DNA from: Escherichia phage EPIMAM01
Reading direction: 5' to 3' (one strand)
Sequence record: PQ493298
Length of the DNA: 64,000 nt
The stretch's first letter is position 1. Each line of letters begins with the position of its first letter. A program made the position numbers and the translations under genes. Below are positions 17,446 through 43,418 of the stretch, in pieces. The notes below the pieces were generated by a model. It searched no databases. It worked only from the letters and a program-made list of their open reading frames with translations, and was not told the origin of the DNA.

Positions 17446-17475
17446 ATAGTACCACAGAGGAACAGTCTTGTAAAC
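17446..17475 (-). promoter_or_regulatory. T4-type early promoter (GTTTAC / TACTAT)
   Basis: gtaaac 17470-17475, atagta 17446-17451; conserved TATACAACTATCAAC start region. Confidence 0.5.
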
Positions 17476-17881: not shown

Positions 17882-18868
17882 TTATTTCAGAAGAGTAACC
17901 TCAGCAATTTCTTCCCAACCGTTTTTGTCGGTCATAATAAAGTCAGCAAGATAAAGAGCAGTACGCAGTGAAACATTGCGTAAACGATTAACATTAACTT
18001 TCATCCATGATAATGCTTTATAAGTTTCTTCATCAGAAAGACCGCGCTTTTGCATCATGTCAGTTGAAAGAATAACATCTTCAACCCTGACCATAATTTC
18101 TTCATTAGTGTGAACACCCAAATCTAAATAAACCGAGCGGGACACTAATGCTTGTAAATGTGGAGCAAGTTTAGTACCACGGTCTAATTCGCGGTCAATG
18201 TCAACGTTTGTGATAAAAACAATCGTTCCTTTAAATTCAAACTCACGCTCAATGCCTTTTTCTTCTAAGTAAGAAGACGCAGTGCTCCAGCAGACTTTAC
18301 GGGTCTCTCCAGTGTCCAGAGCGGCTTTTAGAAGATTAAGAATGTCCATATCAGAGAAAACATCCACATCATCAATTAAAAGGACAGAATTCTCTTCACG
18401 ATTATTCCAGAGCTGCTCATAAAGACCAATACCAGAGATTTTACCGTTAATGCTTTTATATTCAATGTATCCAATATCATTTGCTTTATTTAAAGCTTTA
18501 TCTAAAGAATACGTTTTACCAATACCTGCCGCACCAGAGATAATCAATGAACGAATATTTCCGTTAATAATACCATTCGTCATCATTCCCATAACATTAA
18601 ATCTTTTATTAATGCGGGTTTTCATATCTTCATATGATTCTTTAACTTCTTCAACTTTTACACCATCATATGAAATGTCTGATTTGTAAACCCAAACACC
18701 GCGACGTTTACCATCAATTTCAACAAAAACTTTACCATCTCCTTGTGCATCTACCGGAGCATTATCTGGGAACCATTCGCCTAAGAGCTCAAAAGTTCCA
18801 GAGATTTCTTTACCGAAGTAGATACCCTTATTGATAGTTACAGTTTTCATTTTATTCTCCAATTTCAC
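17882..18868 (-). CDS. P-loop ATPase (AAA-like)
   Basis: 328 aa; Walker A GAAGIGKTYS and Walker B VLLIDDVD. Confidence 0.65.
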   Translation of the reverse strand: MKLENKMKTVTINKGIYFGKEISGTFELLGEWFPDNAPVDAQGDGKVFVEIDGKRRGVWVYKSDISYDGVKVEEVKESYEDMKTRINKRFNVMGMMTNGIINGNIRSLIISGAAGIGKTYSLDKALNKANDIGYIEYKSINGKISGIGLYEQLWNNREENSVLLIDDVDVFSDMDILNLLKAALDTGETRKVCWSTASSYLEEKGIEREFEFKGTIVFITNVDIDRELDRGTKLAPHLQALVSRSVYLDLGVHTNEEIMVRVEDVILSTDMMQKRGLSDEETYKALSWMKVNVNRLRNVSLRTALYLADFIMTDKNGWEEIAEVTLLK

Positions 18869-18886
18869 ATTTGTTTTGATAGGGTA

Positions 18887-18917
18887 ATAGTATCACACTA
18901 CTACCCTTGCTGTAAAC
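18887..18917 (-). promoter_or_regulatory. Early promoter with -10 inside inverted repeat (agggta / taccct)
   Basis: gtaaac 18912-18917, atagta 18887-18892; flanking inverted repeat. Confidence 0.5.
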
Positions 18918-18920
18918 AAC

Positions 18921-19184
18921 TTATTTTAATGTTTGCCAAATTTTTACTGCTTCGCGACGAGATACTTCTACAGCTCCAAGTTCTACAGCTTTTTGGCGTC
19001 GCCGAGCGTGTAAGTCATAATGTTTAATGCGTTTATCTTGAAACCAAGAACGTTTCATTCCTATTGCTTCTGCCATTTCATGAAGCTCTTCAATATCTCC
19101 ATCAGTGAACATATGACAATTTTTAGTTGGATGACCGCGAAGTTTCCATCCATGATTCATTAAAACATCTACGTAAACTGTCAT
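18921..19184 (-). CDS. Small basic hypothetical protein (W/H/C-rich; reminiscent of DUF4031-type proteins, unverified)
   Basis: 87-aa ORF; ATGA-coupled to upstream small ORF. Confidence 0.5.
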   Translation of the reverse strand: MTVYVDVLMNHGWKLRGHPTKNCHMFTDGDIEELHEMAEAIGMKRSWFQDKRIKHYDLHARRRQKAVELGAVEVSRREAVKIWQTLK

Positions 19185-19330
19185 TGATTCTGCTCCAAAT
19201 ATGTTTCTATAATTTTCTGAGCGAGATAAACTGCGTTATCTTCAGTTGCATCTTCTAAGAAATTTTCAAAATAAGCTGAAATTTCTTCTGTGTCAATCAA
19301 CTTTTTTACTTCAATTAACGTAGTTTTCAT
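19181..19330 (-). CDS. Small acidic protein (49 aa from ATG 19330)
   Basis: Longer track ORF would read through terminator hairpin and promoter; internal ATG chosen. Confidence 0.4.
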   Translation of the reverse strand: MKTTLIEVKKLIDTEEISAYFENFLEDATEDNAVYLAQKIIETYLEQNQ

Positions 19331-19364
19331 TTTATTCCCCAAATCCGTATCAGTTGATAGTTGT

Positions 19365-19394
19365 ATAGTACCATAAAGCTTTATGCTTGTAAAC
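19365..19394 (-). promoter_or_regulatory. T4-type early promoter (GTTTAC / TACTAT)
   Basis: gtaaac 19389-19394, atagta 19365-19370. Confidence 0.5.
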
Positions 19395-22005: not shown

Positions 22006-22140
22006 AATTACATACTCCTTTGAATAATATCAATAATGTTGTTCACCAGATTATAAGTAAACATTGGATAATTATATTGAATCATCACATACACAACAAA
22101 CAAAACTTTCATTCTCTTCTCCTTGGCAGTTGACAAGATT

Positions 22141-22170
22141 ACTATATCATAACCTTGCCAACTTGTAAAC
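22141..22170 (-). promoter_or_regulatory. Early promoter with -10 inside inverted repeat (ttggcaag / cttgtcaa)
   Basis: gtaaac 22165-22170, actata 22141-22146. Confidence 0.45.
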
Positions 22171-32998: not shown

Positions 32999-33592
32999 TT
33001 ATTTCAGAGAATTAATGTATTCCTGAACATCGGCAGAGGTAGTTTCAACCCCAGAAATATTACCATTAAAGGTTTCAACTCGAGCAAGGGTATCTTCAAT
33101 ATCAACCTTAGTCAGTGCTGCAATTTCAACTACATCATCGGCAGTACTAATTCCAAGGGCATTTGCCGCACGAGTTTCACGGATATATTCCAATTTAACT
33201 GCAAGCTCTTGACGAGCATCATCTAACTCAACTACTTTCTTGGCGATTTCAATTCGCATTTCAGCATAACCGTCAGCCTTAGTAGTCAACTGCTCAGCTG
33301 TTCGACGATATAGTAAACCGAGTTTAGCATGCATTGTTACATCTTGACCTTCGGAAAGAAGTTTACGAATTTCACGCTCTTTTGATTCAGCCTGTCGATT
33401 CTTTTCGACAATAAGTTCACGAATACGTTTTTCTTCATTAATAGATTTAACAGAAGCAGTTTTTAGATCTTTAATTTTATCAAGCAGTTTTGCTGCTGCA
33501 GCAGTATACTGTTCTTCAACAGATAGATTTTTAGCCATAGCAGAACCAAGTTTAGTGCGAATAAACTCAACAATTTTCTTTAGTGTGTTCAT
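32999..33592 (-). CDS. Coiled-coil protein (possibly PspA/IM30-like)
   Basis: 197 aa, strongly helical with heptad periodicity and E/K/R richness. Confidence 0.5.
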
Positions 33593-34165: not shown

Positions 34166-34190
34166 AACGGTTTCCTCAAGTTACAGGCTC

Positions 34191-34220
34191 ATAATATCTC
34201 AATCATGAGCCTATGTAAAC
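34191..34220 (-). promoter_or_regulatory. Early promoter with -10 inside inverted repeat (aggctcat / atgagcct)
   Basis: gtaaac 34215-34220, ataata 34191-34196. Confidence 0.45.
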
Positions 34221-34558: not shown

Positions 34559-34702
34559 CGTTTTGTGAAAAAATTTTTAGGGAATTCTAGGGCAGGGAGG
34601 GGCAATTAAAAGGTAGGATTAATATATTACCAAATGATGACTAGAGAGGTCCAGAAAGGCCTAGATACCAAAAAGCCCTATCATTTAGATAGGGATTTAA
34701 AA

Positions 34703-35266
34703 TTATTTACCTAGTTTAGTTATTATAGCTTCTGCAGCAGCTTTTAGCTTAGATGCAGTGTTAATACGATTTTTAATTTCAGTATACGCATCGCCAAGAA
34801 CATCAAGGCTATCAGAATAAACACTTACACTATTGCGTTCGCTATTTGAAATAGAACCTTTAGTTTTACGATCAAAATCGGTGTACACGTCTTGAAGATC
34901 GCGGGCTGCCTTCTTTGCATCATCCAATGCATCAAGAGCTTTATTCAAAGCATTAACGTATTTTTTAGTGTCGAACATATTCTTAGAAATTTTAACAGGT
35001 GCACGTTCAGGAGTAGCTAATACAGATTTAGGAACCTGAGCGCCAGATGCCAATTTCTTAGAAATTTTGAAAAATGCTTTATTGAATTTATTTTCTTGAC
35101 TCATTGTAAAAGAACTATTATCGATGTTGTACATTTCAATAGCTTTAGCTTTCCACTTAAGAAAATCGCCGCGGTCTTTTGGGTCCAATTGGAAGAATAC
35201 TTTAGTAAGATCTGCTTCAGATGGTAATTTTGCTGCTTCGGTTAAAAATTCGGCATAGGTTTTCAT
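34703..35266 (-). CDS. Internal protein (IPIII-like size) with capsid targeting sequence
   Basis: 187 aa; N-terminus MKTYAEFLTEA. Confidence 0.65.
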   Translation of the reverse strand: MKTYAEFLTEAAKLPSEADLTKVFFQLDPKDRGDFLKWKAKAIEMYNIDNSSFTMSQENKFNKAFFKISKKLASGAQVPKSVLATPERAPVKISKNMFDTKKYVNALNKALDALDDAKKAARDLQDVYTDFDRKTKGSISNSERNSVSVYSDSLDVLGDAYTEIKNRINTASKLKAAAEAIITKLGK

Positions 35267-35360
35267 TTAAAATCCTTGAAATAATTTATCGGTTGGTTAT
35301 TAATTATTTATTACTTTGTTACTATCCGTAGCAGCATTCTCTATGTGATTCAAACTAAAA

Positions 35361-35384
35361 AGCCCCAACCTTTCGGCTGGGGCT
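35361..35384 (-). terminator. GC hairpin; copy 1 of ~35-bp direct repeat flanking internal-protein gene
   Basis: ctaaaaagccccaacctttcggctggggctaag. Confidence 0.5.
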
Positions 35385-35391
35385 AAGAATG

Positions 35392-35865
35392 TTATTTGAT
35401 TTGTTTAGCAGACCAAATGCGGTCTTTAATAATTTTTTGGATGTCTTCAACATACTCAAGAGAGTGAACATGTGGATTATCTTTGAAACTATAAGCACGG
35501 GCTAACTTTTGGCCTTCGGTTTTGATTACTAAAAGCTCTTTAAGGATAGCTTCATATTTAGAGATAATTCCTTTAACGATATTTTTTTCTTGTGCAGCTT
35601 TAGGATCTGCTTTAGGAGCAGGTTTACCCGAAGCCTTTGCAAAAGCAGCGCCAGTAGCAACTAAACTTTTCCAGGCCATACTAACTGCATTTCCCGTAAA
35701 TCCTTCTGCTTTCATGTCGCGAGCAAATTGGAATCGTGATTCGTCAGAAGCATCTTTATAGGAATATTTACCCGCTGCAATGGCTGCTTTTGCGACAGCT
35801 TGAATTTCGGTGCTAGATGCTTCATTTAACACCGCTTCATTTAAAAATTGAGCATATGATTTCAT
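35392..35865 (-). CDS. Internal protein with capsid targeting sequence (Ala/Lys-rich)
   Basis: 157 aa; N-terminus MKSYAQFLNEA. Confidence 0.6.
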   Translation of the reverse strand: MKSYAQFLNEAVLNEASSTEIQAVAKAAIAAGKYSYKDASDESRFQFARDMKAEGFTGNAVSMAWKSLVATGAAFAKASGKPAPKADPKAAQEKNIVKGIISKYEAILKELLVIKTEGQKLARAYSFKDNPHVHSLEYVEDIQKIIKDRIWSAKQIK

Positions 35866-35919
35866 CTTATTTCCTGTTTTAATTCGTGGATTTAATATAC
35901 TACTATATTTATACTAAAA

Positions 35920-35943
35920 AGCCCCAACCTTTCGGTCGGGGCT
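35920..35943 (-). terminator. GC hairpin; copy 2 of ~35-bp direct repeat
   Basis: ctaaaaagccccaacctttcggtcggggctaag. Confidence 0.5.
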
Positions 35944-35949
35944 AAGCCT

Positions 35950-36250
35950 TGCGGCAACCTTGTCGGGGTTCCACCTGCTAAGGCAAGTGTTTGTACGAAA
36001 CGCCGGGATTCGAACCCGGTTATTAAGCAGTTGACGCTACTCAATATTTTTAAAAGGCCATATCTCGACCATATCCGAACGTTCCGTCAAAAACGCTACT
36101 CGGCTTACGGCAAAGATATTTCCTCGAATCGATAATTCTGTGCGCCGTTTCTGCTGTGATGTAAGGGGACATTAACAGATCGTAAAGATTTGTTAATGCC
36201 AGTCCTTACCCAGGGAACATCAGTCCGACGACTTACCGGTAGCGACCCGG
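35950..36250 (-). ncRNA. Region likely encoding small stable RNAs of the tRNA operon (T4 species 1/2-like)
   Basis: No ORF; tRNA-like T-arm (accgggttcgaatcccggcg) and GC stems; position downstream of tRNA-Arg as in T4. Confidence 0.4.
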
Positions 36251-38540: not shown

Positions 38541-38939
38541 TCAGCCTTCATCAACAATAGTGTGAGTATTAGCATTTACGATTTGCCACCAATCAAAGCG
38601 ATTAGAATCCATCGGTTTGTTTTCATTTTCTTTGATAATGTCACGGAGTTCATCTTCAGAGAATGCTTTAGCAATTAAATCGGTATACCCACCACGGGGA
38701 TAATAATTATCACCTGCAAACAAAAGGAAATTTACCTTCCCGGAAGGAACATATGCTTCCTTAGGATACTTGTTTCCTGCGTGGTCAACCACTTCAATAT
38801 AACGGTAAGGAATATCGGTTCTTTCAACCCATTGCCATGCCGCCGCAGGGGAATCGAAAGCATCTACACCTAAACGATTATCTTCATCTTTAGACGGATT
38901 ATTTTCGTAATCCGCATATACATAATATTCAACGTTCAT
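38541..38939 (-). CDS. Hypothetical acidic protein
   Basis: 132-aa ORF. Confidence 0.55.
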   Translation of the reverse strand: MNVEYYVYADYENNPSKDEDNRLGVDAFDSPAAAWQWVERTDIPYRYIEVVDHAGNKYPKEAYVPSGKVNFLLFAGDNYYPRGGYTDLIAKAFSEDELRDIIKENENKPMDSNRFDWWQIVNANTHTIVDEG

Positions 38940-39124
38940 TATTCACCTTTAGAAATTTTATCCATAACAATAGCAATTAAACCAATTAAAAATGCTACTA
39001 CAAGTGAAAAAACATTTTCTGCCGTAGTCAATAATCCGCATATAAATCCAACAAACATTGAAAAACTGAAAGCGGAAGCAGAAATTGCAATAGCAACATT
39101 TCGAATTAATTCACAACGTTTCAT
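38939..39124 (-). CDS. Small membrane protein (61 aa, two hydrophobic helices)
   Basis: ATG 39124 preceded by GAGGAG; track N-terminal extension rejected. Confidence 0.45.
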   Translation of the reverse strand: MKRCELIRNVAIAISASAFSFSMFVGFICGLLTTAENVFSLVVAFLIGLIAIVMDKISKGE

Positions 39125-39152
39125 TTTATTCTCCTCAGTAGTTGATAGGGTA

Positions 39153-39182
39153 ATAGTATCACTACCCCATCTAAAAGTAAAC
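39153..39182 (-). promoter_or_regulatory. Early promoter with -10 inside inverted repeat (gggta / taccc)
   Basis: gtaaac 39177-39182, atagta 39153-39158. Confidence 0.5.
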
Positions 39183-39416
39183 TTATTTTTTACGAAAAAT
39201 TGATTTATTTTCTGCTGCCCATTTTTCAATAACTGCAGCAGGACCAGTAACAACAATTTTATCACCGTAATCTTCTGCGGCGAGTTGACCGAAATTATCT
39301 AATGCATCACGAAGAACTCCATGAGGCATTTCACCCATTTTATCTTTCTTGCCGGTGTAAATAAACTCAACTTTTACATCAGAAGATTCAGCGATAAACT
39401 CTTTGAAAGTTTTCAT
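39183..39416 (-). CDS. Internal protein (IPI-like) with capsid targeting sequence
   Basis: 77 aa from ATG 39416; N-terminus MKTFKEFIAES. Confidence 0.6.
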   Translation of the reverse strand: MKTFKEFIAESSDVKVEFIYTGKKDKMGEMPHGVLRDALDNFGQLAAEDYGDKIVVTGPAAVIEKWAAENKSIFRKK

Positions 39417-39453
39417 TTTAGTTTCCATTCGATTGTTTTGTTTTGATAGGGTA

Positions 39454-39483
39454 ATAGTATCACAACTAAAACCCTATGTAAAC
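39454..39483 (-). promoter_or_regulatory. Early promoter with -10 inside inverted repeat (agggt / accct)
   Basis: gtaaac 39478-39483, atagta 39454-39459. Confidence 0.5.
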
Positions 39484-39495
39484 AACTTTGTGAAA

Positions 39496-39753
39496 TTATT
39501 TTAAATCTTCTAATCGTTTCTTCATCTTAGAACCATTTTTAGCAATTTCTCCTGCATCGGAGCATAATGCTAAAAGTGCTTTAACTTTAGTTTGGTCTCC
39601 TTTAAAAGATGAAGGATCGACTGCAGCAGCAAGTTCTTTAATACGAGAGAAAAGACGCTCAGCTTCAGCTAAAGCCATTCCAAGCTTTACTTCCATACCG
39701 TGGGAAGATTCAGTGATAGTAGTTTTTGCAGCAAACTCTTTGAAAGTTTTCAT
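39496..39753 (-). CDS. Internal protein with capsid targeting sequence
   Basis: 85 aa; N-terminus MKTFKEFAAKT. Confidence 0.6.
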   Translation of the reverse strand: MKTFKEFAAKTTITESSHGMEVKLGMALAEAERLFSRIKELAAAVDPSSFKGDQTKVKALLALCSDAGEIAKNGSKMKKRLEDLK

Positions 39754-39795
39754 TTTATTTTCCTAATTAATTTTGATGAGGTAATAGTATCACTA

Positions 39796-39825
39796 CCTCA
39801 TCAGCATGTAAACAACTTTGTGAAA
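39796..39825 (-). promoter_or_regulatory. Early promoter with -10 inside 9-bp inverted repeat (gatgaggta / tacctcatc)
   Basis: gtaaac 39820-39825, atagta 39796-39801. Confidence 0.5.
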
Positions 39826-40522
<697 letters not shown>

Positions 40523-41297: not shown

Positions 41298-41828
41298 TTA
41301 AACTTCTGCTATAATTTTACCATCTTTTTCTACTTGAAAATACGTATAAGGAATCGTTGCTGTACATACTAAAGCCGGGTCTGAATCTTCTGTGTAGCTA
41401 AATTCTACTTCAGATAGGTCAGAAACCCAAGGCTTATAAAAATTTATTGACATCACGATTTCAGTTTTGCTATTATCTAAAATGTAAAGCGTAATGTATT
41501 CAGGACCTGTTTTTTGGGCAGTATTTTCGCCTGTAAGATAGTTACTAGTTCCTAGCATCCATTCATACATTCCTATCCACGACTTAAGCTCTTCGTCAAC
41601 TATAAATCTCACGATGAGTGGATCGTATTCAAATGTAACTCCTGGACGTTGTGCTCTGCCTAGTCCAAACGGCCCAGTCACGGTATCAGTAACAGGTATC
41701 CTAATTCCTGGAATAGGAACTGACTGAGCATTTAAAGTAAAAGCAGATGTAGTATTACTATGTGGTATTGATACTACAAAGTTAGTTGTATTTGCTTGGT
41801 TAAAAATTTGTTGCAGTGCTTGCGACAT
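41298..41828 (-). CDS. 3: Tail completion/sheath stabiliser gp3
   Basis: 176 aa from ATG 41828 (MSQALQQIFNQ...) with GAGGA Shine-Dalgarno. Confidence 0.85.
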   Translation of the reverse strand: MSQALQQIFNQANTTNFVVSIPHSNTTSAFTLNAQSVPIPGIRIPVTDTVTGPFGLGRAQRPGVTFEYDPLIVRFIVDEELKSWIGMYEWMLGTSNYLTGENTAQKTGPEYITLYILDNSKTEIVMSINFYKPWVSDLSEVEFSYTEDSDPALVCTATIPYTYFQVEKDGKIIAEV

Positions 41829-41934
41829 ATATTCCTCATAATGCTTTATAAATGTTGGTGGTATAATGGGTCTAAGTCCCTTCCATTCAATTCCAATTAG
41901 AACAAACAATAGAAAAGAATGGAAGATAATAGAA

Positions 41935-42594
41935 TTAATTTATTAGACTTCTTAAACGAGCAGAAGTCATAAATGGAAATTTTTCTAAAGTTGGCTTTCG
42001 CCAATATCTTGGATGACAAGTTGATTTAAAATCAAGAACAACTTTCTTTGCTTCATCAATAGTGTTAACTCCAAAGTTATCTAACATTATTTTCTTTTCT
42101 TTTTCCCACCGTTTATTAGCTAAAGCAGATTGAAGCTTTTTGTTTTTAAATGTGTCATTTTTTCTAGAATGAGTTGTGCCTTGTGTCGGACTCCATCCTC
42201 TTCCTAAAATAAATCCCTCAGGAATTATATCTCCATCATGTAATTTTATACATCTTTTACCATTATTATAATATTTTCGTCCAGTTTGTGTATTTGAAAT
42301 ATTATTTGCATGTTTTCTTTTTAACCAACCATAAACTTTATTATTTCTCCTAACATATTTAGTTGAAACCGTCATTTTTATGGCTGCATAAGATAATTTT
42401 AAAGAATTTGGGTGTATTTTTACTAATAGCTGATGTGCAACATAATGCTCTTCTGGAGTTAAATCAACCAAGTTAGAAGCATCATTACTACCGCCTAAAC
42501 ATTTCGGAATAATATGATGTCTTTCTTTATATCCAGTAAGGGCTCTATTGCGAGCCCTATCAATTAGTGAATTATAAATTTTTTCATAATTCAT
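41935..42594 (-). CDS. Free-standing HNH homing endonuclease
   Basis: 219 aa from ATG 42594 (ATGA overlap with gene 2 stop); HNH core [27 protein letters not shown]; very basic C-terminal half. Confidence 0.7.
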
Positions 42595-43418
42595 CGTACA
42601 TTGCTCCAAACTTTGTTTGCAGAGAAACGTTTTCCTTTGGAGTAGAAGCTTTGGAGTGGCATTAACACAACGTTCGCCCAGTCTTTCGGGGCGATTTCAA
42701 CAAGGCTACCCATAATATTACCGGGGATATATGCCTTAATCATTTGGTCTGCACCCCTAAATCCTTTCACTTGACTCCAATCAATTTTTAATTTCGTTTT
42801 ATTAGTAATAGTAGGTGTATTTGAATATTGCTTTAAAAGCTCTTCTAGAAATTGCTGACGAGCTTTAGGTGGAATATAGTGCAAGTTCAATCCATACATT
42901 AAATTATGTTTACCTAAACCAAGATAAATTATCAAAGGAAATTTATCCCAGTAAGGAAGAGTTTCCTTGTGTTTAGCATCATAAGCAAAAGCATATATTC
43001 GTCCCGGCTGCGGGCGAACAACCTTATGTCCTTTTACTTGCTTAATAGTTTCAGCAAACCACTTTCTGGTTTTATTATTAATTGCTGCACCTTCATTACG
43101 AATTTTATCACGCAATGTTTGCCTGAATGAATTTATCATAAGCAGTTGTCTTTCTTGCTTATTGAGTTTATTCATTGGTTTTGATTCAAGCTTTTGAATC
43201 TTTTCAGCTGTTTTAATTCCTGAAGCATATTTTGACATTGCCGAAGTAAACGTAGAGTATTTGATTCCTCTTTCTTCAGCAAATTTCTTTCCTGTCATTC
43301 CTTTTGCTTTGGCCTTTTTGTATTCAAGACCTATCTGAATCCATTTCTTTTCGTTTAATGATTGCTTAACCTTTGGAACTTGGGGAGTGCTTTCATTAAT
43401 TATTTGAAAAATAGCCAT
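42591..43418 (-). CDS. 2: DNA end-protector protein gp2
   Basis: 275 aa; position between genes 4 and 3. Confidence 0.8.

Follow-up and report, generated by a model that had tools for sequence, protein, structure and literature searches.

Early promoters with covarying inverted repeats in Escherichia phage EPIMAM01 are T4-type promoter/stem-loop elements of an already described class

Six early promoters in a 64,000-nucleotide stretch of Escherichia phage EPIMAM01 (sequence record PQ493298; hereafter the window), a T4-like phage of the Tequatrovirus type, carry an inverted repeat around their -10 hexamers, and are T4-type composite early-promoter/stem-loop elements of the 'PeSL-like' class of internal-protein (IP) loci. 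The observation is a confirmation of published elements rather than a discovery, because the literature already reports promoter/stem-loop cassettes from the internal-protein loci of T4-type phages. That earlier description, together with the documented role of the cassettes in shuffling, was missed in the first-pass annotation of the window. What the present analysis adds is a set of counts, namely the frequency of the elements among all early promoters, the covariation of their arms and their strand bias. The motif class is recognisable and already catalogued, and so should not be flagged as new in genome scans. The abstract of Repoila et al. 1994 reportedly speaks of an 'overlapping inverted repeat palindrome'. 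As far as the account in Arbiol 2010 (PMC2839356) extends, the promoter-associated stem-loop elements at IP loci, there termed 'PeSL-like', are those of Repoila et al. 1994, and the class name PeSL (promoter-early stem-loop) is that of Arbiol 2010 (PMC2839356) and Comeau 2014 (PMC4122927).

Positions 39153-39825 of the window are the ipI locus, with two internal-protein cassettes, one Ip5-like and one Ip6-like, and an early promoter flanking each; the gene order in the window, 1-57A-57B-ip-ip-trna.4, agrees with that of the T4 ipI locus. The Ip5-like gene (39496..39753, minus strand; 85 aa with an MKTFKEF leader) is a cassette with a promoter/stem-loop element on either side, and the Ip6-like gene (39183..39416, minus strand; 77 aa from MKTFKEF) is the second cassette. 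Both ORFs are annotated, as Ip5 and Ip6, in MH355584, where they are accompanied by promoter features, the 39784 and 39454 elements described below both being annotated 'promoter'. A tblastn search returned no T4 homolog of the Ip5-like gene, and no T4 homolog was found for the Ip6-like gene.

Each element spans about 45 bp between two genes and consists of an AT-rich stretch after the stop codon, a GTTTAC -35 box, an extended -10 (TGn + TAnnnT) and an inverted repeat, with one arm in the promoter spacer and the other just downstream of the -10. The -35 follows the upstream stop codon at a distance of 0-15 nt, and about 25-40 nt separate the -10 from the ATG; judging by the usual distance after a -10, the 3' arm probably ends near the transcription start. 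All six repeats named by the first-pass annotation were recovered, each on the minus strand. Three of the elements, recognised by promoter pattern and fold, lie at the ipI locus. The element in the 57B / Ip5-like interval (39774..39813, minus strand) has its -35 GTTTAC at 39813-39808, a 5' arm TGATGAGGTA at 39803-39794, a loop GTGATACTAT at 39793-39784 that includes the -10 TACTAT (39789-39784), and a 3' arm TACCTCATCA at 39783-39774. The two arms form 10 Watson-Crick (WC) bp with an RNA minimum free energy (MFE) of -17.4 kcal/mol, a stability equalled by 0/200 spacer shuffles, and the arms, -10 region and loop are identical to those of T4 promoter 73939 in the 57B / ipI interval. Between the Ip5-like and Ip6-like genes (39446..39483, minus strand), the -35 is at 39483-39478, and the arms ATAGGGT (39477-39471) and ACCCTAT (39452-39446) form a 7-bp stem around an 18-nt loop with the -10 TACTAT (39459-39454) inside (MFE -16.5 kcal/mol); here arms and -10 region are identical to those of T4 promoter 73572 in the ipI / trna.4 interval. 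The element between the Ip6-like gene and the trna.4 ortholog (39144..39182, minus strand) has its -35 at 39182-39177 and its -10 TACTAT at 39158-39153, and its 5-bp WC core, GGGTA (39167-39163) with TACCC, lengthens to GATGGGGTA (39171-39163) / TACCCTATC (39152-39144), a stem of 9 pairs including one G.T (MFE -16.1 kcal/mol). Among relatives, the arms pair perfectly in L152:3848 (9 bp) and in L153:3767 (11 bp).

The three other elements are also on the minus strand. Upstream of the nrdC.10 ortholog (18881..18917), the arms AGGGTA (18907-18902) and TACCCT (18886-18881) form 6 bp around a -10 at 18892-18887 (MFE -15.7 kcal/mol), and the element is preceded by a 49-aa ORF that is missing from T4 at the same site. 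Upstream of the mobD.2 ortholog (22128..22170), the reported ttggcaag / cttgtcaa repeat is present, but with one G.T inside it and as part of a fuller stem, AGTTGGCAAGGTTAT (22163-22149) / GTAATCTTGTCAACT (22142-22128), closing a loop at 22148-22143. This stem holds several G.T pairs, exclusively on the sense strand, and is the most stable of the six (MFE -19.0 kcal/mol); its T4 ortholog 57990 has a perfect 14-bp stem, AGTTGACAAGATTA / TAATCTTGTCAACT. Upstream of a 176-aa ORF (34185..34220), the arms AGGCTCAT (34212-34205) and ATGAGCCT (34192-34185) form 8 bp around a -10 TATTAT at 34196-34191 (MFE -18.1 kcal/mol). T4 lacks the 176-aa ORF, which occupies the place of T4 e.7.

Promoters were defined by sequence match to GTTTAC-N17-19-TANNNT, and sense RNA was folded from the -35 box through 15 nt beyond the -10 hexamer; the T4 'promoters' are likewise pattern matches, because the T4 RefSeq and GenBank records hold no promoter features. 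With TG upstream of the -10, the motif occurs 24 times where 5.5 occurrences would be expected, almost always on the strand of the early genes. Exactly the six named promoters fold with an MFE of -15.7 to -19.0 kcal/mol, against 0 to -8.2 for the ten remaining minus-strand sites. The fraction at or below -15.7 kcal/mol is thus 6/16, with a binomial tail of 1.8e-5 that is computed from a spacer-shuffle null of p = 0.038 for MFE <= -10. The promoters at 17446, 19365 and 34529 had been said to lack the repeat, and the short hairpin is indeed missing in all three, but 17446 pairs over a long range with its own Shine-Dalgarno sequence (SD). Scored by WC stem length alone, the enrichment is more modest, with stems of at least 7 bp at 3/16 window promoters versus about 2.8% of random genome positions of the same geometry; at a WC-only threshold of 5 bp, 6 observed against 4.2 expected in the window leaves promoters not separable from chance. 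The signal emerges with WC stems of at least 7 bp or with RNA energies, and in T4, stems of at least 7 bp occur at 9/40 promoters versus 1.0 expected.

The wider set drew on T4 and about 40 related genomes and comprised 319 distinct promoters. An MFE <= -10 is reached by 28.8% of them versus 2.4% of spacer-shuffled controls, and an MFE <= -14 by 19.4% versus 0.1%, the energies being bimodal; as the compared sequences are related to each other, the shuffle controls overstate the significance of these differences. Because only about 29% of early promoters have the hairpin, it is dispensable for promoter function, and for gene boundaries, generally. A scan of the IMG/VR viral_contigs with GTTTAC-N15-17-GATACTAT gave, among the matches listed, mostly unrelated contigs; the pattern was too unspecific, so protein-anchored loci were used instead.

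The arms of the repeats differ between copies and yet stay complementary, as had been noted for the six. Perfect stems of 7 bp or more come in 38 distinct versions. In a non-redundant, unselected set of promoters, only the symmetry register whose centre falls on the first two -10 bases rises above column shuffles (z = 4.1), every other register being at z <= 0. In 39 register-matched hairpins, changes on both sides are seen at 12/14 pairs. Double-change cells number 132, where shuffles give 44 +- 7, and sliding the partners lowers the covariation score from 0.60 to 0.12-0.20. Arms that co-vary without a conserved arm sequence support selection on pairing, as first proposed, and speak against a fixed protein-binding dyad.

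The reading that we favour, and regard as reasonably probable, is that the elements are composite promoter/stem-loops in which a sense RNA hairpin would arise only in read-through transcripts and mark the 3' boundary of the upstream cassette, with the promoter core providing homology for shuffling. RNA made from the element's own promoter would never contain the hairpin, because its transcript would start at or past the 3' arm. Read-through RNA from an upstream early promoter would contain both arms and could fold into a hairpin of 12-15 pairs, the innermost two or three of which would be supplied free by the conserved TGn/-10 bases. As a 3' boundary mark, the hairpin would attenuate read-through, or block 3' exonucleases after downstream cleavage, or both, and the conserved promoter core would serve for swapping, inserting and deleting cassettes such as ip5 and ip6. 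Anatomy, enrichment, covariation, a bias to the sense strand, chimeric elements and a link with variable cassettes are all observed; formation of the hairpin in vivo, and its effect there, are inferred. A sister design pairs a spacer arm with the downstream SD; it is sensible only as RNA and counts for the RNA reading. Counting against a boundary is the literature finding that T4 middle genes are expressed by extension of early transcripts.

At the opposite extreme, there may be no selection on pairing, the repeats reflecting chance and consensus symmetry spread by duplication, or a dyad operator for a dimeric protein. The consensus is indeed quasi-palindromic, its column composition giving 35% WC pairs in the preferred register versus about 25% elsewhere, and the innermost 2-3 pairs derive from TGn and -10 bases. 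However, the outer pairs co-vary far beyond composition, and the diversity of perfect stems and the bimodal energies (19% <= -14 kcal/mol versus 0.1% of shuffles) are likewise at odds with this explanation, which we hold to be very improbable and which the register, stem-diversity, energy and covariation results already contradict; the protein-operator variant was rejected because arm sequences show no conservation. If pairing is selected, it may act in DNA, and the first-pass annotation had proposed both supercoiling-sensitive cruciforms and RNA hairpins in read-through transcripts. A cruciform would be extruded by negative supercoiling and would place the -10 in a single-stranded loop, such that promoter activity would follow superhelicity. 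It would suit repeats centred on the -10, the 8-10 perfect WC pairs of 39784 and 34191, the 13-14 bp of the T4 orthologs 57990 and 65799, and the folding of both DNA strands of 39784, 39454 and 34191 (z -3.4 to -5.2). The combination of a perfect repeat, a short spacer and two-strand folding is found approximately in 39784 and 34191, but not in 39153, 39454 (18-nt loop) or 22141 (G.T). Moreover, WC arms measure 5-10 bp, often just 5-7 bp, around loops of 10-18 nt, and cruciform extrusion with short arms and such loops is energetically unfavourable. Several stems rely on G.T pairs that are A.C on the other strand, and G.U pairs lengthen stems on the sense strand only; in its folding the antisense DNA strand of 39153 does not surpass shuffles (z = -0.9), and for 22141 and 18887 the antisense DNA fold is clearly the weaker one. 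The RNA MFE is -16 to -19 kcal/mol versus -5 to -8 as DNA. Across the wider set, sense RNA is more stable than antisense at 69/89 hairpin-bearing promoters (69 vs 19; Wilcoxon p = 1e-8), a gap due in part to G.U pairs imposed by the promoter consensus, and arm mismatches outside the conserved core show a trend in the same direction (14 G.U vs 5 A.C; p = 0.06, not significant). The RNA hairpin is thus the better supported of the two mechanisms, by sense-strand G.U pairs and sense stability, and the cruciform is unlikely.

Even as RNA, the stems might be canonical Rho-independent terminators of the upstream gene that overlap the next promoter by chance. Their intergenic placement right after a stop codon fits this, as do the literature label 'promoter-terminator motifs' and a single published reporter test, in which the stem-loop of phi1 PeSL211/210 reduced downstream lacZ to an extent similar to the rrnB T1 terminator. 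This test, which also speaks for the boundary reading that we favour, is the sole functional one in the literature, and its GC-rich stem belongs to another group of phages. However, a terminator scan of 38900-40400 found no terminator-like site, and a T-run follows 0/6 stems, the sequence next to them being ATCAAAA, AAAATTA or GTAACTT. Stems without a U-tract are not canonical terminators, efficient intrinsic termination from them is unlikely, and this explanation has a distinctly low probability. Against Rfam covariance models, the sole matches were to two snoRNAs at chance level (E = 0.37 and 0.49). The repeats might instead be by-products of recombination or replication without RNA function, either as nuclease targets that start cassette exchange or through templated quasi-palindrome correction; templated quasi-palindrome mutation is known in T4 rII. 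The window does bear footprints of cassette shuffling. T4 lacks Ip5, Ip6, the 176-aa ORF found in place of e.7 and the 49-aa insertion ahead of nrdC.10, all of which are flanked by hairpin promoters in the window. The elements are located at the boundaries of indels and replacements. Moreover, one promoter sequence, approximately shared by the 18887 element and T4 promoter 146143, sits at differing loci. Chimeric elements with mismatched arms from different families (L138:3843, L145:3469, L131:3674) and a duplicated -10/3'-arm segment (L138:4174) indicate recombination within the element. A stem as target of recombination proteins was speculated on by Arbiol et al. 2010 (PMC2839356), who also cite T4 deletions that end at GGGC/GCCC repeats. 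Against this, templated correction predicts perfect WC palindromes without strand bias, but the arms tolerate sense-strand G.T (the 14 vs 5 and 69 vs 19 above), and promoter-core homology alone suffices for recombination, making the hairpin unnecessary. A by-product of this kind is unlikely.

The composite promoter/stem-loop that we favour can be set beside several known systems. As Arbiol 2010 (PMC2839356) and Comeau 2014 (PMC4122927) describe the IP-locus elements of Repoila et al. 1994, no essential difference from the window is apparent. The likeness extends to an ipI locus downstream of 57B, to ip5/ip6 cassettes with a conserved MKT(F/Y) leader, and to the T4 early promoter and its stem-loop on both cassette sides. 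The PeSLs of RB49/phi1, PST/T4 and nt-1/KVP40 also lie between small variable ORFs and beside indels, have G-T stem pairs, and were proposed to end upstream transcription and mediate modular shuffling (Arbiol 2010, PMC2839356; Comeau 2014, PMC4122927). Those of RB49/phi1 differ in having G(n)...C(n) stems and near-perfect TTGACA/TATAAT promoters, whereas the window has AT-richer, variable stems and a GTTTAC -35; Arbiol et al. 2010 (PMC2839356) regard the T-even IP elements, with weaker AT-rich stems, as analogs and not homologs. PST stems lie just upstream of the promoter (Comeau 2014 figure legend, PMC4122927), whereas window stems bracket the -10.

A similar nesting of hairpin and promoter is found in the T4 RBS-sequestering hairpins of e, soc, 49 and I-TevI, where local transcription begins downstream of the 5' arm and only transcripts from further upstream can therefore contain the structure (Uzan & Miller 2010; Edgell et al. 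2010). There, however, the hairpin holds a late promoter, and its 3' arm masks the SD or AUG. In the six window elements the promoter is early, the 3' arm covers the SD or start codon in 0/6 elements and ends well upstream of the SD, and translation is thus not directly blocked. In bacterial promoter-coupled terminators, termination or boundary signals and initiation signals of neighbouring tandem units likewise share short intergenic DNA, with RNA 3' ends about 10 bp upstream of the next start, but the stem lies over the -35 with a T-tract just upstream of the -10, in contrast to window stems that bracket the -10 and have no T-tract (Fletcher et al. 2026, bioRxiv 10.64898/2026.08.19.745784). 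A limited literature search found no genome-wide 5'/3'-end maps of T4 transcripts. REP elements, such as that of malE-malF, are intercistronic stem-loops of conserved sequence that block 3' exonucleases in polycistronic mRNAs and are not promoters. The window elements, which are promoters, share with them a hairpin without U-tract between tandem cistrons, and we propose that a REP-like block to 3' exonucleases may be the likeliest biochemical role of the window hairpins.

Injected internal proteins counter host restriction systems, and the elements are junctions at which T4-type phages exchange small accessory genes, those for injected internal proteins included. A role of the hairpin, whether in stopping read-through, protecting the upstream mRNA end or promoting recombination, would explain how a cassette, once acquired, can be expressed while neighbouring genes are left undisturbed, and why shuffling is confined to certain loci.

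In many other early promoters, the spacer holds a sequence complementary to the SD of the gene that they drive. A 3' arm over the SD and/or start codon is seen in window promoters 27152 and 17446, and in 48/66 long helices of the wider set. This SD-sequestering design with early promoters is absent from the T4 reviews of Uzan & Miller 2010 and Edgell et al. 2010, which hold late-promoter cases only. Tentatively, the spacer might be a genome-wide site for the 5' arm of an RNA structure confined to read-through transcripts, forming a boundary hairpin over the -10 in about 29% of early promoters and an anti-Shine-Dalgarno helix in roughly 13%, a possibility to which we give somewhat less than even weight. 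An anti-Shine-Dalgarno arm would silence read-through copies of the downstream gene or shield them from RegB cleavage. With such a design, each early cassette would be expressed essentially from its own promoter only, and would bring its own insulation wherever it is shuffled.

The window derives from a T4-like phage of the genus Tequatrovirus, with megablast identities of 98-99% to Escherichia phage UGKSEcP2 and Shigella phage SHFML-26, and on its minus strand the genes run in the order gene 1, 57A, 57B (39826-40281), an 85-aa ORF (39496-39753), a 77-aa ORF (39183-39416) and a 61-aa ORF identical to T4 trna.4. The 85-aa and 77-aa ORFs are labelled Ip5 and Ip6, respectively, in the annotated relative MH355584, where both of the intergenic elements beside them carry a promoter annotation, and both ORFs start with MKTFKEF, the conserved internal protein (IP) leader. 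The region from 57B to trna.4 is the T4 ipI locus.

Scanning the window for the pattern GTTTAC-N15-20-TANNNT gave 24 matches against 5.5 expected, nearly all on the minus strand, and merging of overlapping matches left 16 promoter sites on that strand. Six of these, named here by the position of the -10 element, had been described in the first-pass annotation as holding the -10 within the loop of an inverted repeat, and the arms are present as stated, one in the promoter spacer (5' arm) and the other just past the -10 (3' arm). The arms measure 10 bp at 39784 (TGATGAGGTA/TACCTCATCA), 8 bp at 34191 (AGGCTCAT/ATGAGCCT), 7 bp at 39454 (ATAGGGT/ACCCTAT), 6 bp at 18887 (AGGGTA/TACCCT), and 5 bp at 39153 (GGGTA/TACCC; 9 pairs if one G.T is allowed), while 22141 has a 15-pair stem that includes G.T pairs. 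Folded as sense RNA, these six promoters reach -15.7 to -19.0 kcal/mol, as compared to 0 to -8.2 kcal/mol for the remaining ten (independent folds were also made). Shuffling of the spacer alone yields an MFE of -10 or lower in 3.8% of cases, and the observed 6/16 corresponds to a binomial tail of 1.8e-5. Watson-Crick (WC) stem length alone is less striking, with stems of at least 7 bp at 3/16 window promoters versus 2.8% of random genome positions. The promoters at 17446, 19365 and 34529, cited as negative examples, indeed have no short hairpin.

The same promoter pattern identifies 40 sites on the early strand of T4 and 3 on the opposite strand. An inverted-repeat scan of early promoters in the window and T4, as proposed in the first-pass annotation, revealed an enrichment in T4 of stems bracketing the -10, with stems of at least 7 bp at 9 promoters (1.0 expected) and of at least 8 bp at 6 (0.25 expected). 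Four of the nine lie in the two T4 IP loci (73939, 73572, 66498 and 65799), and the arms and -10 regions of 73939 and 73572 are the same as those of window elements 39784 and 39454, respectively. The ipI locus was also sampled from 36 T4-like contigs using 57B as anchor, and 20-kb early regions were sampled from 40 contigs using tk. The folding energies of 319 distinct promoters are bimodally distributed, with 28.8% at or below -10 kcal/mol (2.4% of spacer shuffles) and 19.4% at or below -14 kcal/mol (0.1% of shuffles).

Arm sequences are highly diverse, including GGGCT/AGCCC, AGGGCTAT/ATAGCCCT, AGGGTTAT/ATAACCCT, GGTAGGACTA/TAGTCCTACC, GTGTAGGGATA/TATCCCTACAC and AGGTCTATAG/CTATAGACCT, and a total of 38 different stems are perfect over 7 bp or more. 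The arms at the site upstream of trna.4 vary from phage to phage, with each pair remaining self-complementary. An ungapped alignment of 39 distinct hairpins in the preferred register was chosen for stem presence, such that its 84% pairing is by construction and the diversity of its pair types is not; both sides change in 12 of 14 pairs, with 132 double-change cells versus 44 +- 7 in shuffled alignments (none of 500 shuffles reaches 132), and the covariation score is 0.60 versus 0.12-0.20 with slid partners. Selection for structure, the core of the interpretation in the first-pass annotation, is thus supported by arms that are both diverse and covarying.

The preferred symmetry axis separates the first base of the -10 hexamer from the second. 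Among 63 non-redundant promoters unselected for pairing, this register holds 329 WC cells versus 287 +- 10 after column shuffling (z = 4.1), and the six neighbouring registers show no excess pairing (z <= 0). The early consensus itself, in the window, T4 and the comparison sequences from T4-like phages (L122-L201), is a quasi-palindrome about this axis, T-N-GG-NN-TATGA | TACTATA-NN-CC-N-A, with 35% WC pairing from column composition alone versus ~25% elsewhere. The extended -10 T and G pair with the hexamer A and T, giving the stem two or three nucleating pairs at no extra cost. Such symmetry may in part explain the 'additional regions of consensus' mentioned in reviews, as well as the preference for C that RB69, RB49 and 44RR are reported to show at positions -3 to -1.

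Two example structures had been offered for the repeats, a cruciform in DNA and a hairpin in read-through RNA, and the evidence favours RNA, whatever its function. The stems do fold as DNA, but on the sense strand they reach only -4.9 to -8.1 kcal/mol, and a cruciform requires that both strands fold, whereas antisense DNA is weaker than sense for 39153 (-3.2 kcal/mol, z = -0.9), 22141 and 18887. When both RNA strands were folded for 89 promoters with a hairpin, the sense strand was the more stable in 69 and the less stable in 19, by 2.5 kcal/mol on average (Wilcoxon p = 1e-8). This difference is partly due to G.U pairs imposed by the consensus; promoters without a hairpin show no such asymmetry. 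Single arm mismatches outside the core are G.U in 14 cases versus A.C in 5 (p = 0.06), a trend rather than proof, and the mobD.2 promoter fits the sense-strand G.U pattern, as two A-to-G changes in its 5' arm between T4 and the window turn A-T pairs into G.T.

By the usual distance after the -10, the 3' arm would end near the expected start site. With the 5' arm in the spacer, the hairpin is therefore possible only in RNA arriving from upstream. No U-tract follows any of the stems and a terminator scan gave no match, and the label of intrinsic terminator was accordingly rejected. The T4 literature regards mapped 3' ends as stable RNA ends and not termination sites, and describes early transcripts as being extended into middle genes. 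Taken with the missing terminator signature, these observations lead us to prefer a boundary hairpin that would block 3' exonucleases, perhaps with partial attenuation. In the only published functional test, a promoter-early stem-loop (PeSL) of phage phi1 strongly lowered downstream lacZ (Arbiol 2010, PMC2839356), but that stem is GC-rich and belongs to a different phage group from the T-even elements.

The hairpin promoters are a known feature. PeSLs are preferentially located beside variable ORFs, and their proposed roles are to stop transcription coming from upstream and to serve in modular shuffling (Arbiol 2010, PMC2839356); the discussion of that paper credits Repoila et al. with promoter-associated stem-loops at IP loci, and Comeau 2014 (PMC4122927) added the PST/T4 pair to the phages with PeSLs and restated the link to IP loci. 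The finding is thus a rediscovery of a described element at the locus of its first sighting. The present analysis adds figures on how frequent the element is, how its arms covary, which symmetry axis is preferred, how far the consensus is itself quasi-palindromic, and how strongly the sense strand is favoured.

Hairpin promoters in the window flank exactly the ORFs absent from T4, namely Ip5, Ip6, a 176-aa ORF at the place of T4 e.7, and a 49-aa ORF between nrdC.11 and nrdC.10. The last (region 18850-19394, minus strand, ATG at 19330) has the look of a classic cassette inserted between a pair of promoter elements, with a T4-type nrdC.10 promoter upstream (19394-19365) and a hairpin promoter downstream (18917-18887) that is near-identical to T4 promoter 146143 of another locus. 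At several related loci, chimeric elements combine the 5' arm of one family with the 3' arm of another, and in comparison sequence L138 (4174-4240) the segment with the -10 and 3' arm is in tandem duplicate (two copies of GATACTATTACCTCATCAA), much like the 'recombinational slippage' copies of Comeau 2014 (PMC4122927). Such elements are direct evidence for exchange inside the conserved core. In the T4 record NC_000866, a misc_feature at 133300-133313 (33500-33513 of the piece used here, L160) states 'inverted complement of previously reported sequence; corrects the early promoter Pe133295'. By coordinate arithmetic from site 133331, these 14 nt are the hairpin loop ttgtgatattatag, including the -10, between arms GGTAGAG/CTCTACC. 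The loop was apparently flipped between its arms in an earlier T4 clone or sequence. This may be an artefact of cloning or sequencing, or a true inverted-repeat-mediated inversion that would turn the promoter off.

In a second architecture, statistically stronger than the -10 hairpin, the 5' end of the spacer, immediately following the -35, is complementary to the 5' UTR of the gene which that promoter serves. Among 314 distinct promoters, 43 have a helix of 8 bp or longer (2.3 expected from shuffles, 3.8 from swaps) and 26 have one of 10 bp or longer (0.1-0.6 expected); of the 66 helices that reach 7 bp or more, 48 overlap the Shine-Dalgarno (SD) sequence. Minus-strand examples in the window are the promoter of the regB ortholog (27181-27152, TCCTCTT...AAGAGGA) and the promoter at 17475-17446 (TGTTCCTC...GAGGAACA), listed in the first-pass annotation as having no repeat; others are T4 65413 (denV), L167:305, L170:7360 and L123:3663, and helices in relatives reach up to 15 bp. 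The SD would be sequestered in read-through transcripts and free in those from the local promoter, the same logic as for T4 e, soc, 49 and I-TevI, a design that the T4 reviews consulted give for late promoters only (Uzan & Miller 2010; Edgell et al. 2010). The two architectures are seldom found together (odds ratio 0.21, p = 0.001), which may partly reflect competition for the same spacer. We regard this anti-SD class as a moderately interesting side lead.

Two further internal-protein-like genes on the minus strand, 35392-35865 (starting MKSYAQFLNEA) and 34703-35266 (MKTYAEFLTEA), have no early promoter/hairpin elements in their flanks (34600-35960), and hence these IP genes lie in another regulatory context. 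A GC-rich hairpin with a T-run (GCCCCGACCGAAAGGTTGGGGCTTTTT or GCCCCAGCCGAAAGGTTGGGGCTTTTT) stands in front of both genes, and a late-promoter-like TATAAATA follows gene 35392-35865. Also on the minus strand, a 203-aa ORF (41298-41909) is followed in window coordinates by a 224-aa ORF (41935-42609) that may be a homing endonuclease, based on an apparent HNH-endonuclease-like motif judged by eye.
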